NCBI RefSeq assembly: GCF_017348835.2
Contig: NZ_CP071375.1
DNA: 64,000 nucleotides
Direction: 5' to 3' (one strand)
Origin: Escherichia coli
GTDB taxonomy: Bacteria; Pseudomonadota; Gammaproteobacteria; Enterobacterales; Enterobacteriaceae
Position 1 is the first letter of the stretch, and every line of letters starts with the position of its first letter. Shown one piece after another: positions 3,157-59,985 of this stretch. The translations under genes were made by a program, and so were the position numbers. The notes under the pieces are model-generated. The model had not been told where the DNA came from and did no database searches. It saw only the letters and a program-made list of their open reading frames with translations.

Positions 3157-3411
3157 TTAAAGCTGACCGACAGACTTTCTTAACCTGGTAATATCTCTCT
3201 TAGGTGACTCTCCAAACATCTGCAAATATTCCCGGCGGAAATGGGATAAGCTTTCGTAACCGACAGCATAGGCTGCTGTGGTGACATCGTAATGTTCATT
3301 CAGCATCGTTCGCCTGACTTCATTGAGACGTAGCCATTTCTGATACCGGAGTGGACTCATTCCCGCAAGCTGCCTGAAGTGTTGATGGAAAGAGGGCGTG
3401 CTCATTTGCAC
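3157..3411 (-). pseudogene. yneL: AraC-family regulator fragment (C-terminal HTH only), yneL-like
   Basis: 84-aa ORF carries only the second AraC helix-turn-helix; the overlapping 3320..3577 ORF in another frame does not look like HTH1, so the gene appears truncated or frameshifted. Confidence 0.45.
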
Positions 3412-4117
3412 GCGGTTTGCCAGCTTGAGTCTTCAACGCTGGGAAGATGCGGCAAACGGCAAATCGGCATACCAGCCAGCCTATATCCGTCATGCACAGG
3501 CCAATTATGAAAGAGGAGAGGCTTAAGTTCTGGAACCCTGAACGAATAACGAGCACCGGAAAATCACTTCGTATCACTCAGATGCTATTTAACATAATAT
3601 ACATTATGCGCACCAATATAAACCAAGGGAGAATCTAGTCGTTGGCGGTCATGATTGTCCTGCTCATTAACAACGACCAAACCCCATATCTTACTCTTAC
3701 TTAATACCGTATTCCCGGCTTAACCGACCGTGCAACCTCAACACATTGGTTTCAACTGCCGTCACCACGTTCTCTGGAAAATCTGTCGGTAATGAAGTCT
3801 TCACGTTATCCAGTGCTGCCGGAATCATTCTGGCAAAGTCACTCAGGATTTCATGCATCTGCACTTCCGGGAATCTCAGCACCTTTGCTGTCGCCAAAAA
3901 ATGTCGCGGATAAATTTTATCGATTGCCGTTTTTTTGCCTTTGGATGCGTTAAGCCCCATTGCCAGTTTGAGATCGCTGATGTGTATTCCCGCGCCACCC
4001 AATACCGGAAATGCTGAAATGATGTCGTAAAATGGCGTGAGTCGATAACTGCCGCCAGCCTGAATAAATACGGAGAAGTTTTTTGCATGGCCATCCGTTG
4101 CGCCAATCAGTTCGCTG

Positions 4118-4547
4118 CATACCGGTCCGACCCCGTACTGCTCACGCAGCTTATCCAGCAGTGGCATTATTTTTTCCAGAGGCGGTCGAACTCCGCCTTC
4201 GCAAAATAAGCGGAAGCCTGGCGAAGGATATCGTTACTGCGGCGCAGTTCACGATTTTCACGTTCCAGCTCTTTCAGACGCTGACGTTCAGCGGTGGTGA
4301 GTCCACCATCACCACTCCCGGTATCCCGCTCATGCTGGCGAACCCAGACACGCAGAGTCTCCGGCGTACAGCCAATCTTTGGGGCAATGGAACAAATTGC
4401 CGCCCACTGTGAGTCATATTCATCCTGACTTTCCAGAACCATACGAATCGCCCGCTGACGGACTTCGGGGGAAAAACGAGTATTTTTAGTCATCCTGTTT
4501 ACCTCTTTCTCAGGGAGTTTAGTCTCCAGGATTTCCGGGGCGGTTCA
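4118..4547 (-). mobile_element. Truncated IS3-family element (IS629/IS1203-like): terminal repeat, complete orfA, first ~20 codons of orfB
   Basis: Bases 4118..4547 match the full copy at 56514..57823 (same end sequence, ending ggggcggttca); identity stops at 4118 inside orfB. Confidence 0.8.
4167..4493 (-). CDS. IS629-like transposase OrfA
   Basis: 108-aa ORF ([19 protein letters not shown]...), identical to the orfA at 57443..57769. Confidence 0.85.
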
Positions 4548-4841
4548 CAACGCTGTCTCGCCCTATTTCTGACAATAAATCAAACGGTTGTCTGGATTTG
4601 GCATGATAACGTTTAACGATCCGGTCACGTACAATCGGGCTATCGGGTAACAAGTTATCGAAGAAGTTAAATACGGCATCAGAGGTGATATTCCCCCTCT
4701 GCAATGGCAGCGAAAGTGACAACGGTCTGGCATAACGGCTGGCTAACCACTCCGGTGCATACTTAAAGGTGTGCGCGCCGTTGGCTAACTTCGTTAACTC
4801 GCCTACCCGCTGGTTGTTCATCCAAGTGACTAGTTTGGGCA

Positions 4842-5108
4842 TTACCACTCCAGATCTTGCTGTTCTGTTGATTCTGGCGAGGCATTTTTCGTGTCGCATA
4901 GCGTCATTGAGAGTTCAAGCGACTGTAAAATCTTAAAAAATGTCGTGAGCGAGGTATTGTCAGGGTTGTTTTCGAAATTGGAAATCGTCGCCTGCTTAAT
5001 GCCGATTTTTTTCGCCAGCTCGCTCTGCGTCCAGCCATTTTGCTGGCGAACCAGTTTCATTGCATTCGCTAATTGCGTTGGGCTATAGATCTTCTGAAAG
5101 CTCATCAT
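4842..5108 (-). CDS. hipB: HipB antitoxin / transcriptional repressor
   Basis: ORF matches HipB (MMSFQKIYSPTQLANAMKLVRQQNGWTQSELAKKIG...); stop overlaps the hipA start by 1 nt as in the known operon. Confidence 0.9.
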   Translation of the reverse strand: MMSFQKIYSPTQLANAMKLVRQQNGWTQSELAKKIGIKQATISNFENNPDNTSLTTFFKILQSLELSMTLCDTKNASPESTEQQDLEW

Positions 5109-5129
5109 GTCATACGTCCACAGCAAATT

Positions 5130-5243
5130 TATCCGCTTAAGGGGATATTATCAGTTTTATCCTTTAGTGAGGATAAAGTCAATCTGGAAACACATCTTAT
5201 CCGCTCTACGGGATAAACGCTGCGATATCCGCGATCGCGGATA
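5130..5243. promoter_or_regulatory. hipBA operator region: four TATCC-N8-GGATA HipB operators
   Basis: TATCC-N8-GGATA palindromes seen at 5130-5147, 5158-5175, 5198-5215 and 5226-5243, directly upstream of hipB. Confidence 0.8.
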
Positions 5244-5318
5244 AAAGGGAGGCTTTAAAAGCCGTTTGAAGTCGGCAATATTAAGCCGCATGCCATCTCG
5301 ACATGCGGCTTATACGGT

Positions 5319-8300
5319 TTACCAGCTATATTTCACTCCCAGCATGCCCTGAGTATCGCTATAGCCTTTATCACCTAGTTGCACACCGACATTCCCCCAC
5401 AGGCTAAGGTTGTTATTTACTTTCGCCTCAACCCCGGTACGTACTTCACCGAGATTACGCGCACCATCACGGCTTACGGTTTGACCATTCATCTTCACGG
5501 CGTAGACTTCGCTATTGTTGATCCAGTTCGCTTCAATGTAAGGCTGGAACTCACGCTGTTTACCATCGTCACGCTGGTGATGGCTATTCAGGTAGGTTTT
5601 CACCCCAAGTCGCGTTTGCACGTTTCCGTCGCCTTCCGTTTCAATGCGCGTTCCGTCTTTCCGGGTATGGTCAGAATCTTTCACACCCATCCAGGTGATT
5701 TGTACCTGTGGCTGGACGTACCAGGTATTCAGCGTCCCTTCGCTGCCACTAAATGTTCCCGCTTCAAAGGTATACCCACCCTCAACAGAGGCCGTCACAC
5801 CGCGAGAATCATAGTCGTCAGCAGAACGGTTATCGGAACTGACACTGTTATCAAACCAGTTATACAGCACCCAACTGTCAACATAAGCGCCGGTCTTATT
5901 CGCATCGTTCTGATACCAGGTCGCGTACAGCCCAGCGCTGTAACCGCTGATGCGCCCATCCGATTTATAACCCACACGATTACTCTGAGTATTACTGTGC
6001 TGATTGGCGTAGCCTGCCATCACGCCAAGATGCCAGCGATCCTGCGCGTTGCTACTCCACTGCGCCAAATCGCCGCCTAGCTGCAATACATAGCGGTTAG
6101 CCTGAGCATTTAGCTGGCCGTCACCGGTCCTGAAACGTTCGTGTCCCCCGACATGACGCATCCACATACTGCTTGCCGAACCCTGAGAAAGCCGTGAATC
6201 TGTATACTGCGGCTCACCCAGACGGTCGTGTAAGCGATGGCTAAACAGCGAGTTGGCTGCGGCAATGTTGCTGATATAGCTTCCGGCCTCCGGGCGATAA
6301 ACTGATGGGCCTTCCGGATCCACAACAGGGGGATTATTGATGGGATCGGGTGTATCCGCTGGCGTTACGCCGTCCCATTTACTGGTCAGATACCAGTTTT
6401 TCTCGTCATTCCCCTTCCCTTTAGCCAGCGTGTAGACGTAAGCCCCAGCTTCGACAGTTCCGGTGGTCAGCGCGAAGTTACCTGCAGAATTACCGCCAAC
6501 CTCAATGAGTTCAATACCGTTGACCGTTTGCGCACCGACGCCGCCAATGTTATCAACCCGAACGCGAGTGTTCCCTTGGGTATCGCCTTTCACGTTCATC
6601 TTATCGGTGGGTGAATTATCGCCGCCCAGCGTCGCGTTGAACGTTATCAGGCCATTGTTTCCGGTATAGTTGCCGTTAACGGTCAGTACATTCCCCGGTT
6701 TTCCTCCTTCACTGTTCATTTGAACCGTGCCGCCATTCTTCAGGTTGCCGCCGATTGTGGTTTTAGCGACACGCAGTGTCCCCCCAGACATAACGTTCAC
6801 ATCACCTGCAGTGGTGACATTTCCCGACATCACACCGCTGTTATGGATATTAATGTGTTGACTTACCGTATTAATGGCAGAGTCGGAACCGAAAGCAATT
6901 TCCCCCCCCCCACGATATCCGTCGTACCCTGATACGCCGAGGAATCGTTGTTAAGAGTCAGGATCCCGGTACCCAGTTTTGTCAAATCACCGCTACCGCT
7001 GATACTGTGCGTCATCGCCCAGCTACGCTCAGTGGAGATGGTGAGCAGGCCATTATTGATAACGGAAGCATCACCCAGGTTTTTCTGCTCGTTGACGCTG
7101 AGCGCGCTGCCTGTATCAATGTTGAATTGCCCCACAAAGCGGCTATTATCGCCATCCAGCTCTACATCTGTCCTGGCGGTTGCGCTCACGATACCCTTCC
7201 CGCTTATGCTATTACGCAGTTCGCCAGTCACGTTTTTTAGCGTTAACAGACCGTCATTGGCAATATTTCCTCTGCCTAACCCCTGCGTATTATCGAGGCT
7301 GACTTCCGCATTTGGGCTAACGCTGGTTAACGCATTGTAGCGTGCATTAAGCCCCTCAATAGCCAGCGTTCCCCCTGTAACATTCAGGTTTCCGCCACCT
7401 GTCAGTTCACCCTGACTGATCCCACCTTTGGACACCGTGGGAACCGTCCTGAACGCCCACCAATGAATATTCTTTGTTATTAATCAGTCCATTATTGGAA
7501 ATATTGACTTTGCCATTACCGAAATATCCATTATAGAGTCTGCGTACCGTGATGACAGAGTCTTGATCCTGCACATTCAGGGTTCCGACACCGGTGGCAT
7601 TGCCACCGATAATCGTATTTTCAGCCGTAATCAGTCCACCCTCGCGAATAGTCGCCTCCCCAGTTCCTTGATTACCAATTTGAAATTCAATTGAGGAATC
7701 GTTATTTTTCATTAGCCACTCGCCACCCTTTTCAACGACAACCTGGCCATTACTGCCCGCCTGATAGCCTAAAATGGCGACGATTGAACTCGTGACGTAA
7801 CCCTTATCCGTAATATTTAATGAGCCTGTACCGTAACTCCCTATTTCGAATAATTCGGTCGTCAAAACCGAGTCCTCTCCCTCAACATTAACCGTCCCGA
7901 CGCCTGCAGCTTGAGTACCTAATCTTAAATAGCCTCCATCGACGTGACCCTTCTGTTTAATATTCAGCGTCCCCGTTCCGGATTGACCCACATTTAAAGG
8001 CCTTGCATTATTTCCGCTATCATACAATCGCCAGGTGCCACCCAAAACATTAACGGTACCCTCCGAATCCTCATTACCGCCAATGACGCTGGTAGTAATA
8101 GTGGTTAAGGAGGCATTACCGCCAGCCAAAATATTAAGCACTCCAGTGCCATACCAGCCAACCAGGTAGGCATCATAAGCAACATCAGTATCAATATTGG
8201 TAATCTGACCATTATCAACTTCCAGACTCGCACCAGACGCTGAACCGCTTAGTGCCAGCAAAACACCCAGCGTCAATCTACTGAATTTCGTTGTCAGTCC

Positions 8301-8414
8301 AGAGGATTTACGCAAATTAACCGTCGATGTTTTACCTGCCCTGCGAGTTAATTCCGAGCAGGCCTGAAATACCTGTAGAGTGCAATTCCATATCACGCGA
8401 TAGATTCTATTCAT
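5319..8414 (-). pseudogene. yneO: AIDA/Ag43-type autotransporter adhesin, frameshifted into three ORFs (yneO-like)
   Basis: ORF 7407..8414 has an extended autotransporter signal peptide (MNRIYRVIWN...), ORF 6863..7435 a Gly/Thr-rich passenger, ORF 5319..6833 a beta-barrel ending in a W terminal residue; all three are in different frames. Confidence 0.8.
6902..6911. repeat. Homopolymeric tract, 10 x C on + strand (G10 on coding strand) at the frame break inside the autotransporter
   Basis: tcccccccccca read directly; both flanking reading frames are open across the tract. Confidence 0.9.
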
Positions 8415-8944
8415 ATAAACGCTCCATATACAAACAATACAGCCACGAAAGAGATGAGTCGTCAGACATTAAAAATGAAACTTATTAAATTGTCAGAGGT
8501 CTGTATTGAGTGTTAGTTGGAGGTGCGAAGGTGTCAATTTGGCTAATTTGCTAATGCTTTCGAATTGATAGATTAAAAATTGCATAGTTCTTATTTTATT
8601 TAAAAATGAACTATGAGTTATTGTTGCTTAATAAGAAAACTGTTTCTTTCAATAGGAAAATTATCATCATCATATTTAACAAAGAATAGCACTAATTGCT
8701 AAAAATCGAAGTTTATTAAACCCCTTTTGCATCCATTAATGTCTTTAGGAATATTCGCTATAAAATAAGGGTTATGCTTAATGCTTTAAGAAAAATAGCA
8801 ATTTTCCCTTGAATATAGTACTGGTGATGGAACGATGAATCTGCAAGCTGGCATTTAACAAGCCAGCTCTAAAAGAAGGGAAATAAGAAAAACTATACTC
8901 AAAAACTAACAGCCACGGTCATCATGATGTGGCTGTCAATGAAA

Positions 8945-55788: not shown

Positions 55789-56513
55789 TTATCTCGTCAC
55801 CTTCCTCAATTGCGCTTCCGCGTATGCTTCTTCCTGCCAGCACTTTGTTACCAGTTTACCAATGACGTCAGCATACCCCTTATACCACTGATAATCGGTC
55901 AGGTCTGGTACCAGCTTCTGGACATGACGTCGTGCCAGCGTGGTCGGTAAACGACTAAACCGGTTTCCATTACAACGCCCACAAATCTTATATACCGGTA
56001 CGCCATGAAACCGGGTTCTTTTTTCATCCAGAACAATCCCTTTACCCTTACACCCTCTGCACGCTGTGCTGACTTCGCCCTTACCATGGCAATGCTGACA
56101 TAGTTCCTTTACCCATTCTTCCTTGATTACAGATTCCCCGCGTCTGTAGTGTTTCACCACTTCGCGCAATACATTATAAAATCCCGTACCTGAACAATGC
56201 TCACAGCGAGCCTTACTTGCCGCAGACCTAGAGTAATCAGCAAAGGCAAAATTCACGAGGTAAGGAATAATCTGTAACCGGATTTCTTCACTCAATTTGT
56301 TCAATGTCGGGTTATCCAGTGCCATCGCGTAATTTAGCAGGCCTTCAATCGCAAACTGAGGGTCCTGAACACCAACTTTTGCCAGAAATAAGGCCAACCC
56401 AAGTGGTGCTTTCGACTGCACCATCCCCTGCGCTGCCATTACATCCGTAATTGTTAAACAACCGGTGCCTGTCGCTGGAGCGTCATCGCTCAATTTTGGA
56501 GATTTTGGGGAGT
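55789..56513 (-). CDS. quuQ: Late-gene antiterminator Q-like protein with four CxxCxGxG zinc motifs; 5' end removed by IS629
   Basis: 234-aa ORF starts at TTG 20 bp from the IS end; frame is open right up to the IS boundary at 56514. Sits upstream of the cold-shock morons and lysis genes. Confidence 0.6.
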
Positions 56514-56555
56514 TGAACCGCCCCGGGTTTCCTGGAGAGTGTTTTATCTGTGAAC

Positions 56556-57443
56556 TCAGGCTGCCAGATCATTATTTCCGATGGAAGCATAATAAGCTTT
56601 TTCTGCTTCTGCCGGAGGAATATGGCCCAGCCTTTCCAGCAATCGTCGATTGTTATACCAGTCCACCCACGTTAGTGTGGCCAGTTCCACTTCTGTCCGG
56701 TTTTTCCAGCTCTTACGGTGTATTACCTCCGCTTTGTAAAGACCATTGATGCTCTCAGCCATCGCGTTGTCATACGAGTCGCCAGTACTCCCTGTTGATG
56801 CCAGTAATCCGGCTTCCTTAAGCCGCTGCGTGTAGGCCAGCGATACATACTGAGAACCTTTATCACTGTGATGGATTGTGCCGGACGGCCGACGGGCCCA
56901 CAACGCCTGCTCCAGTGCATCCAGCACGAATGTTGTTTCCATGGATGATGAGACCTGCCATCCCACGATGTATCCGGCGAACACATCAATGATGAACGCC
57001 ACATAAACGAAGCCCTGCCATGTGCTTACCCAGGTAAAATCAGCCACCCACAACTGGTCTGGACGTTCTGCCACGAACTGACGGTTTACGCGGTCGCATG
57101 CGGCAACGGCTTTCCGGCTGACGGTAGTGCGGACCTTTTTACCCCGGAGAACACCGGCAAGTCCCATAACTGCCATGAGACGTGCCACAGTGCATCTGGC
57201 CACTCTGATACCTTCCCGTAACAACTGACGCCAGACTTTACGCACACCGTATACCTGGTGATTTTCATCGTATACGCGCTGTATCTCTTTCTTCAGCCAG
57301 TCATCGTGCTGCGCACGGGCACTGCGTTTATCCGGATGATGTCGCTGTTGCTGACAATGGTAATACGTTGACGGGGCAATATGCAGTTCGCTGCATACCG
57401 GTCCGACCCCGTACTGCTCACGCAGCTTATCCAGCAGTGGCAT
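56556..57443 (-). CDS. IS629-like transposase OrfB (DDE); expected to be made as an OrfAB fusion by -1 frameshift
   Basis: 295-aa ORF; A-rich slippery stretch (GGAAAAAATAATG) at the orfA/orfB overlap. Confidence 0.9.
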   Translation of the reverse strand: MPLLDKLREQYGVGPVCSELHIAPSTYYHCQQQRHHPDKRSARAQHDDWLKKEIQRVYDENHQVYGVRKVWRQLLREGIRVARCTVARLMAVMGLAGVLRGKKVRTTVSRKAVAACDRVNRQFVAERPDQLWVADFTWVSTWQGFVYVAFIIDVFAGYIVGWQVSSSMETTFVLDALEQALWARRPSGTIHHSDKGSQYVSLAYTQRLKEAGLLASTGSTGDSYDNAMAESINGLYKAEVIHRKSWKNRTEVELATLTWVDWYNNRRLLERLGHIPPAEAEKAYYASIGNNDLAA

Positions 57444-57769
57444 TATTTTTTCCAGAGGCGGTCGAACTCCGCCTTCGCAAAATAAGCGGAAGCCTGGCGA
57501 AGGATATCGTTACTGCGGCGCAGTTCACGATTTTCACGTTCCAGCTCTTTCAGACGCTGACGTTCAGCGGTGGTGAGTCCACCATCACCACTCCCGGTAT
57601 CCCGCTCATGCTGGCGAACCCAGACACGCAGAGTCTCCGGCGTACAGCCAATCTTTGGGGCAATGGAACAAATTGCCGCCCACTGTGAGTCATATTCATC
57701 CTGACTTTCCAGAACCATACGAATCGCCCGCTGACGGACTTCGGGGGAAAAACGAGTATTTTTAGTCAT
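57443..57769 (-). CDS. IS629-like transposase OrfA
   Basis: 108-aa ORF identical to 4167..4493. Confidence 0.9.
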
Positions 57770-57874
57770 CCTGTTTACCTCTTTCTCAGGGAGTTTAGTC
57801 TCCAGGATTTCCGGGGCGGTTCATTAAAGATTTTTTTGTGCATGCCGATAGTGCTTTTTTAAAAGGAGAAATCT

Positions 57875-58207
57875 ATGTCTGTCACAATTCAGGGAAATAC
57901 CTCAACCGTTATTTCAAACAACTCCGCCCCGGAAGGAACATCAGAAATAGCCAAAATCACAAGACAAATTCAGGTGCTGACTGAAAAGCTTGGGAAAATC
58001 TCATCGGAAGAGGGGATGACGACACAGCAGAAAAAAGAAATGGCTGCATTGGTACAGAAGCAAATTGAAAGCCTCAGGGCTCAACTGGAGCAGTTGTTAA
58101 GGCAGCAGGCAGAGAAAAAGAATGAAGACGCGACAGTTCAGCCTGATAAAAAAGAAGAGAAAAAAGACGATACAAATACCGCTGGCACCATTGATATTTA
58201 CGTCTAA
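57875..58207 (+). CDS. flxA: Prophage protein FlxA
   Basis: 110-aa ORF MSVTIQGNTSTVISNNSAPEGTSEIAKITRQIQVLTEKLG... with ribosome-binding site. Confidence 0.7.
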   Translation: MSVTIQGNTSTVISNNSAPEGTSEIAKITRQIQVLTEKLGKISSEEGMTTQQKKEMAALVQKQIESLRAQLEQLLRQQAEKKNEDATVQPDKKEEKKDDTNTAGTIDIYV

Positions 58208-58221
58208 GTGACAGCCGTATT

Positions 58222-58245
58222 GTGGCCCTCATCGGGCCACTTTTC
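58222..58245 (+). terminator. Intrinsic terminator after flxA
   Basis: GTGGCCC-tcatc-GGGCCAC-ttttc. Confidence 0.75.
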
Positions 58246-58643
58246 GCCATCAGCCTTTTCTTTAAAGACATATTATCTTTGTATCATTTCTGATAGTTAA
58301 CATTACAAGATATAAGTAATGGACGCACTCCCAATTAGTCTATTTAAATCGCCACGAGTTTAACTGACAACCCATGATCAATTATGAATTGCAACTATTT
58401 CTGTAGTCACTTTTGTGGGGACAGTCCACAAAACTGCCAACTTCCGCTTCTTGCTCTTAGCGGACATTAGCATAGGCTATTTACCATAACGCCTCATTAC
58501 GCGCACCGCCCAGACTGACTCAGCGCGTTTCTGGCATATCCCCGGTAAAACAAGTAACAAACCACCCGAAAATGAACACCAGAAACGCGACTTAAGAATC
58601 TACCCTATGAATGGATATGCACTCAACCGAATCGATCTTGGTT

Positions 58644-59985
58644 TCAATCTTTTTTATCGGGATCAGGCTTCTTTTTAGGTAACTTCGGGGGCTTAACTTG
58701 CTGATGACTTTGCGTTCGGCGCGTAAGCCAGGGATGGTCAGCTTTAGGTTTAACATAGTATTTTGAGCGTAAATCAATACGGGCATTATCCACTCGTTCA
58801 TGGACACTCTTTTCATCATCCAGTGGTATAGGCTCCGGGCCATCAACATACTTTTCCCAGCCCAGCGCTTTCCCGTCATACAGAACGTTAATTTCACCGT
58901 CAAAGTTCTCGCATACAGTAACAACCGAATGCCTAAGTCGATATCCCCGGCCCTCACTGCGTACCTGAAACGCACTGCTTTTGTACTGGAAAGTGAGATT
59001 TTTAGACAGAACGCGCTTCGCCTGTAGGCTGAAGATATAACCCAGTTCCTCTTCAGAATGGTGCACATCAAGATGAGCATTATCAGTAGTACGAGGCGAC
59101 GTAGCGAACCGGTTGTTATAGGCTTCAATAAAGGTCGGCAACCATGCATTTGCTGTTTCAATATCACTGATATTCTGAAGCCGCATTTCTTTGACCAGCC
59201 TGTCCTGTAGTGTCTGATTGGCGCGCTCTACCCGCCCTTTTGCCTGCGGGCTGTTGGCATGGATTGGCTCGATGCCCAGTGTCTTTATCGCACGAGTGAA
59301 CTGGGTCAGCTCACCTTCCCGCTCTGGGTTATTTACCCTGAATATACTGTGTCTATCAGAGTAGAGAGCGAGCGGTACGCCATGATCATTAAGGTAACCC
59401 CGGAGGGTTTCCATGTAAGCCCGGGTTGTTTCAGCAGGCACAAAACGCAACGCCATCAACGCACTGGTGGCATCATCAATGAAAACGATCAGTGTACATC
59501 TGGGGCCTCGATTTTCAAACCAGTCATGAGGTGAGCCATCAATCTGGATCAGTTCACCGTAAGATGGTCGTCGCATGCGGCGTTGATATATACGGGCAAT
59601 TTTACGACGGCGTTCACGCCATACCCCCCTCTTCTATCATCCACTTTCTGAGAGTTTCAACGGATAAAGATAAACCGTGTATCTCGCGCAATTTTTCGCA
59701 CGCAAACGTAGGTCCAAAATCAGCGTAACGGCCTTTGAGGAGTGAAATTACTGTTGCTCTGAATTCAGTAGAAAAGGAATTATTAGGACGCTTTCCACGT
59801 CGGTGGGAAACCAGACCAGAAGGCCCTTCATTTCTATACCGTTGCACCAGACGTTTAACCTGCCGAATAGAAATGCCAATGCGTGCCGCAGCTTGTTCCT
59901 GAGTAATATGTCGATTAATTGACTCCTGAATAATCTGAAGTCGGTGGAGTTCCTTATGACTCATCGTAACAGTTTCTTTGGTCAT
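58644..59985 (-). pseudogene. HTH + DDE (integrase-core) transposase split into two frames (IS481/ISNCY-like)
   Basis: N-terminal HTH ORF 59614..59985 and DDE ORF 58644..59576 are in different frames; a C7 run sits at the junction (59625-59631). Confidence 0.6.

Follow-up and report, generated by a model that had tools for sequence, protein, structure and literature searches.

Probable two-step loss of the hipA toxin gene in an Escherichia coli strain through IS629 insertion and a later deletion, with hipB left as an orphan

The hipA gene analysed here is dead, and very probably became so through insertion of IS629 followed by one deletion of 1,488 bp, made by illegitimate end joining, on a known haplotype of Escherichia coli. 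By the window we mean the whole stretch of DNA that was analysed, 64,000 nucleotides (64 kb) in length. All features of the hipA locus, comprising hipB, the pieces of hipA and a remnant of the insertion sequence, lie on its minus strand within positions 3697-5243. In E. coli K-12, hipBA is a type II toxin-antitoxin module in which the Ser/Thr kinase HipA is accompanied by HipB, a repressor acting at four operators of the form TATCC-N8-GGATA. The locus described here retains the repressor and its operators and has lost the kinase, and chance similarity accounts for none of its features.

The hipB gene (4842-5108, minus strand) is intact. It encodes a helix-turn-helix antitoxin/repressor that translates into 88 aa, is positioned directly upstream of hipA and overlaps the hipA start. 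Its DNA is 100% identical to the gene of strain PE164, where the product is annotated as WP_001613070.1; the same accession stands beside the intact hipA of strain ES5. The hipBA promoter region carries four exact matches to the HipB operator motif (5130-5147, 5158-5175, 5198-5215 and 5226-5243), which are the only exact sites in the whole 64-kb window against an expectation of 0.04, and four or more were found in 0 of 100 shuffles. The claim in the original prediction that hipB and all four operators are intact is thus borne out on both counts. Furthermore, positions 4548-5537, which span the promoter-operators, hipB and the 5' part of hipA, are 100% identical to two loci with intact hipBA (L017 and L021). 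Loci whose module works thus share both the promoter-operator region and hipB with the window at 100% identity. Production of HipB probably continues, and the protein probably also goes on repressing its own promoter, as an orphan acting without HipA as co-repressor.

Conversely, hipA survives only as two fragments. The 5' fragment (4548-4842, minus strand) comprises codons 1-98 plus 1 nt, is identical to residues 1-98 of intact HipA and includes, at 4548-4551, the CAAC that represents the retained copy of a 4-bp target duplication. Its reading frame continues into the end of the IS as far as a stop at 4519, for a product of 107 aa that consists of HipA 1-98 and nine extra codons (VNRPGNPGD); the Pfam domain Couple_hipA (PF13657) is recorded for exactly this product. 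The boundary at 4547/4548, where HipA residues 1 to about 97 had been said to meet the IS terminal repeat, proved exact, with residues 1-98 preserved. The 3' fragment (3697-4109, minus strand), delimited by alignment and residue mapping, extends from codon 304/305 to the stop, in agreement with the expectation that HipA resumes at about residue 305. Between the two, 615 bp or 205 codons of hipA are missing, close to the 200 or so first estimated; the loss covers residues 99-303/304, or 99-304 if an ambiguous leucine at the join is counted.

Residue mapping reveals that the missing segment included Ser150, the VAGAQEKT stretch next to it and Lys181, and that Asp309 and Asp332 are retained in the 3' fragment. 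Ser150 is the autophosphorylation site of HipA, and Asp309 and Asp332 are catalytic residues. The full-length kinase of about 440 aa that belongs to a functional hipBA module is therefore absent, and from established HipA biochemistry we infer that no active HipA kinase can be made, since Ser150, the VAGAQEKT stretch and Lys181 are lost.

The sequence that separates the fragments is a piece of IS629. It occupies 4110-4547 on the minus strand (IS nt 1-438), or 4108-4547 (IS nt 1-440) if a 2-bp overlap with hipA is included, and over these 440 bp is 100% identical to positions 57384-57823 of a full-length copy that lies outside the hipA locus. This reference copy (56514-57823, minus strand) is 1310 bp long, possesses both terminal inverted repeats (TGAACCG...CGGTTCA) and matches the depositor-annotated IS629 of phage BP-4795 (AJ556162.1) at 99.5% identity over 1310 bp; the Stx-phage copies listed are 98.3% identical to the element. 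The name 'IS629-like' is justified by that full-length identity of 99.5%, and nucleotide identity lies above the 95% threshold for assignment to a named element, but the remnant itself is short of a complete element of about 1310 bp with both ends. What remains is the left terminal repeat, a complete orfA (4167-4493, minus strand; 108 aa in the ORF list), the frameshift region and codons 1-20 of orfB. The 870 bp that are lost, against a first estimate of about 880 bp, comprise the right terminal repeat and all of orfB beyond codon 20.

The damage extends to the signal that stimulates frameshifting between orfA and orfB. The ALIL pseudoknot of the remnant (4096-4212, minus strand; Rfam RF01497) scores 88.9 bits, compared with 120.3 bits for that of the full copy (57372-57488; RF01497), in which all pairs are standard. 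In the remnant the last 12-14 nt have been replaced by hipA sequence and positions of the 3' stem are mispaired, and the score drops because the 3' strand is now hipA sequence. With orfB cut after codon 20, the remnant has lost the combination of orfA/orfB frameshift, ALIL and DDE transposase that characterizes the element. It is immobile and cannot transpose, having one end and no transposase.

The intermediate of this decay is preserved in a sister strain. The best match to the window among 5,426 complete E. coli genomes was PE164 (NZ_CP114128.1; pig, Nanjing), which is 99.97% identical over 56 kb, the differences across about 56.5 kb being 10 mismatches and 2 gaps. The hipA locus of PE164 has flanks 100% identical to those of the window and is 1,488 bp longer. 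A full-length IS629 (1309 bp, IS3-family, annotated as frameshifted) sits at the identical position in hipA and in the same orientation, flanked by two copies of CAAC (4 bp), of which intact hipA has one. PE164 retains the whole of hipA, as two pieces, and the window equals PE164 minus a single block of 1,488 bp. No exact record was found for the 340-aa ORF formed by the 3' part of hipA in PE164, and relatives were found via the neighbouring fimbrial protein instead.

PE164 is accompanied by further relatives. The same junction between the N-terminal part of hipA and the IS occurs in contigs of at least 16 samples, taken from draft assemblies and Logan (including L007-L014), all of which break inside the IS, and three partner contigs (L022-L024) begin in the right IS end and run into hipA at codon 98/99, which is the PE164 state. 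One other contig (L025, SRR17771774) stops 300 bp past hipA and contains no IS sequence; it was judged an uninformative contig break. The flanking haplotype of the window is also found with an uninterrupted 440-aa hipA in four cases (L017, L018, L020 and L021; 0-3 mismatches in 4.1 kb). Since both the PE164 intermediate and an intact hipA of the same haplotype exist, the order of events runs from intact gene to IS629 insertion to 1,488-bp deletion. Hence the comparison of related genomes proposed at the outset has yielded intact hipA (the four cases above and ES5) as well as the predicted IS629 intermediate (PE164), and supports the view that an insertion was followed by a second deletion that left hipB an orphan.

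The identical hipA/IS629 junction has also been found on a divergent hipBA allele, in one of the Logan contigs (L014, SRR30937708; equivalent to window 4520-5509). Between this allele and the window, 9 of 990 positions differ, each of them in hipB or the 5' part of hipA, and the 107-aa product of the allele is unchanged. It reflects either an independent insertion at the same nucleotide, which would then be a hot spot, or recombinational import.

The deletion junction was placed by setting the window against both the hipA side and the IS side of PE164. Homology to hipA continues up to 4109 and homology to the IS begins at 4108; the dinucleotide CA at 4108-4109 is a 2-bp microhomology common to the IS interior and hipA, and the join lies at 4109/4110. 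The point at which the IS was first thought to be cut and joined to hipA, 4118, was wrong by 9 bp. Random joins would share 2 bp or more by chance in 16% of cases, and the join is therefore effectively homology-free.

In the sequence of events that we favor, IS629 (1310 bp, IS3-family) first entered hipA after nt 294, at codon 98/99, in the orientation of hipBA and with duplication of CAAC, a step that can be read directly from the relatives. The 1,488-bp deletion, evident as a sequence difference, then took IS nt 441-1310, one copy of CAAC and hipA codons 99-303/304. The anatomy of the junction suggests that this second step most likely proceeded by RecA-independent illegitimate recombination, in the form of end joining of a resected break or of replication slippage. 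The loss is roughly symmetrical around the right end of the IS, with 870 bp inside and 619 bp outside, which would fit a break at or near that end, albeit as an indication and not as proof. Recombination between two IS copies was considered and rejected, as there is no IS sequence at the hipA-side breakpoint in either PE164 or ES5.

It could be argued that the deletion was made by the transposition machinery of IS629 itself, whether by cleavage at the right end, resection and microhomology joining through the IS-excision enhancer (IEE), or by 'sloppy' strand transfer. IEE-dependent excision of IS629 is reported to produce deletions beside the element, ranging in size from a few nt to more than 40 kb, through microhomology joining after resection (PMC9943667; bioRxiv 10.1101/2023.06.07.543989). 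The DNA lost here does span the right IS end, IS629 is abundant in the lineage (31 places in PE164 for a probe that includes the IS piece), and a second IS629-linked rearrangement, in the Qin prophage, separates PE164 from the window. Nevertheless, we regard this route as unlikely. A transposase-made adjacent deletion joins an IS terminus to a distant site, but here the surviving IS end remains on its original flank with the duplication, and the deletion has brought orfB-internal sequence (IS nt 438/440) up against hipA-internal sequence. With no IS terminus taking part in the join, and with the surviving end on its original flank, transposase did not make the junction. Moreover, iee (Sakai ECs_1305) is not in the 64-kb window, and a chimeric probe, made so as to list PE164 in any case, found one place on its chromosome and no second match that would be iee, as opposed to two places in other genomes of the same list. 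End joining by IEE in vitro is reported to have needed at least 4 bp of homology (PMC9943667), compared with the 2 bp seen here. The IS copy at hipA in PE164 is annotated as frameshifted, though transposase could act in trans. IEE was accordingly set aside as the leading mechanism and kept as a rival, iee having been searched for in the 64-kb window and on the PE164 chromosome. Illegitimate end joining remains the reading that we prefer.

The junction is unique so far and known from one assembly. A 120-bp probe across it gave no match covering at least 80% of its length in the 5,426 complete E. coli genomes, and a 41-nt probe had 0 matches in metagenome contigs. That it is found in one sequence only, with one end within a multicopy repeat, raises the question of an assembly or consensus artefact at 4109/4110 that conceals a true structure like that of PE164. 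We think such an artefact very unlikely. With only 2 bp common at the join, no k-mer path could create the junction, and the break is located away from the repeat boundary. Every short-read contig of the hipA locus stops at the IS, but the window is contiguous across a complete 1310-bp IS and therefore points to a long-read or finished assembly. Additionally, the remaining 56 kb differ from PE164 only by the mismatches and gaps given above.

The deletion has also created a chimeric ORF that the original prediction did not contain. It extends from 3697 to 4167 on the minus strand and fuses OrfB residues 1-20 in frame to HipA residues 305-440, giving 156 aa; an in-frame outcome had a one-in-three chance. 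Pfam HipA_C is matched in the fusion only over model positions 128-212 of 213. A search of an index of 153 billion genes returned no gene with exactly such a product, which is weak as a negative because short-read contigs would truncate the ORF. A simple scan for terminator-like sites returned none on the minus strand from hipB to the hipA stop. As hipB, the hipA 5' fragment, orfA and the orfB'::'hipA fusion are all co-directional with no recognizable terminator between them, they may be co-transcribed, and read-through from the hipBA promoter is plausible.

It is tempting to ask whether any of these products has acquired a role. Here we see only a slim chance that the 107-aa hipA fragment, HipS-sized and bearing Couple_hipA, acts in a HipS-like manner on another HipA-family kinase, or that OrfA dampens other IS629 copies. 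If so, the N-terminal fragment would bind or neutralize a HipA-family kinase encoded elsewhere in the genome, or constitutive OrfA from an immobile remnant would lower the transposition and excision of roughly 30 other IS629 copies in trans. IS629 excision was depressed when orfA was provided by itself, in work that has been reviewed (bioRxiv 10.1101/2023.06.07.543989). Our analysis provides no support for selection on a HipS-like or OrfA effect, the deleted allele having been seen once.

A last reading, in which the HipA-like pieces are a naturally short or split paralogue of the hipS/hipT type, could appeal to the Couple_hipA domain of the 107-aa N-terminal product and to HipS being of about the same size. 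HipS does correspond to the N-terminus of HipA (PMC9325769). This reading has next to no probability. The pieces match full-length hipA alleles at the same chromosomal position, part for part, with 98.6-100% DNA identity and are split by an IS remnant, the C-terminal piece has no Ser150, VAGAQEKT stretch or Lys181, all of which a HipT-type kinase would require, and the two pieces jointly have no residues 99-304, unlike the separate hipS and hipT genes of a HipBST system, which encode a complete kinase. The alignment to hipA and to the full IS copy at 56514-57823 that had been suggested as a check, extended to intact hipA of the same haplotype, thus refutes a short paralogue or HipS-HipT split.

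Other parts of the window bear marks of rearrangement as well. The full IS629 copy is located in the Qin prophage, where its boundaries (56513/56514 and 57823/57824) exhibit no target duplication, the flanks being GAGT and TTAA. Compared with strain F2_81 (L015, 861-3999), which carries no IS at this place, about 3.1 kb are missing exactly beside this copy, namely the 5' end of ydfT together with ydfU, rem, hokD, relE, relB and ydfV; relBE and hokD are two more toxin-antitoxin modules absent beside IS629 in the window. Set against window 56510-59106, the Qin IS of PE164 (2626845-2628155, L006) is inverted relative to that of the window and has its left boundary 4 bp further left, and PE164 is also without 1,283 bp that correspond to window 57824-59106 (flxA, ydfW and the start of an ISEsa1 remnant). 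On these comparisons the window is derived at hipA and PE164 at Qin, each lineage having undergone an IS629-linked rearrangement of its own since their split. PE164 carries about 30 copies or pieces of IS629, comparable to the counts listed for O157 strains, and no iee was detected on its chromosome.

The immediate neighbors of hipBA are likewise degraded. Upstream of hipB, an autotransporter gene of the ECSE_1600 family (about 5319-8850, minus strand) has become a pseudogene too. Its PE164 annotation gives a frameshifted gene in two parts, one with the beta-barrel and one with the ESPR signal peptide, which together measure about 3.1 kb compared with 5.4 kb in ES5. Between hipA and the fimbrial operon lies a fragment of an AraC-type helix-turn-helix gene (3157-3411, minus strand), which is annotated as incomplete in both PE164 and ES5, with its N-terminus missing, and which fits the variability reported 5' of the F9 fimbrial operon (PMC7232551).

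Lesions in hipA are not rare. The gene was kept to at least 80% in one place in 4,849 of the 5,426 complete genomes, and about 10% did not keep it so. In HH35 and PO06021, hipA is interrupted at nt 774 by a different insertion, also of the IS3 family, O157:H7 genomes with a truncated hipA were found, and other genomes have internal hipA deletions. A further deletion lies between flanks identical to those of the window: in GCA_014583015.1 (L019), an IS-free internal deletion of 683 bp (equivalent to L001 1916-2598) leaves a 209-aa product. It is a third independent hipA lesion on one haplotype. A literature search returned no relevant report on the combination of hipA and IS629. The kind of event is common: it is routine two-step pseudogenisation and ordinary gene decay, and only the survival of the intermediate in a sister strain is unusual.

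The locus resembles several described systems and departs from each. It shares with hipBA of K-12 its chromosomal position upstream of the F9/yde fimbrial genes (context in PMC7232551); unlike it, the hipA of the window is without codons 99-304, is interrupted by 438-440 bp of IS629 and is no longer part of a toxin-antitoxin pair. With the hipA::IS629 allele of PE164 and the related drafts it has in common the insertion point, the orientation, the 4-bp duplication and the 100% identity of the retained 440 bp and flanks, whereas PE164 keeps the whole IS and all of hipA and the window is without the 1,488 bp across the right IS end. The same element is known to inactivate genes and then to be followed by IS-adjacent deletion in E. 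coli O157 and other STEC/ETEC; in contrast to the IS629/IEE deletions of STEC/ETEC, the deletion here stops within the IS, of which an immobile stump with one end remains. Finally, orphan higA genes are antitoxins left after toxin loss in E. coli strains (PMC7232551), and hipB similarly represents an antitoxin/repressor retained after loss of its toxin partner, but here remnants of the toxin gene persist together with the IS that caused the loss, and the path of decay is directly readable.

Taken together, our findings assemble four stages of decay on one haplotype, from the intact gene through IS insertion to a deletion that immobilizes the IS, with an independent IS-free deletion beside them. 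The hipA locus is thus a clean worked example of the decay of a chromosomal toxin-antitoxin module, and is usable as a lineage marker for a pig-associated clone. Published accounts have HipA phosphorylating glutamyl-tRNA synthetase and so blocking translation. The strain cannot use HipA-dependent persistence and carries an orphan hipB, a consequence that matters little beyond the description of the strain itself. Three hipA lesions on a single haplotype, considered together with the loss of relBE and hokD beside IS629, contribute to the view that E. coli strains rich in IS elements readily lose chromosomal toxin genes.
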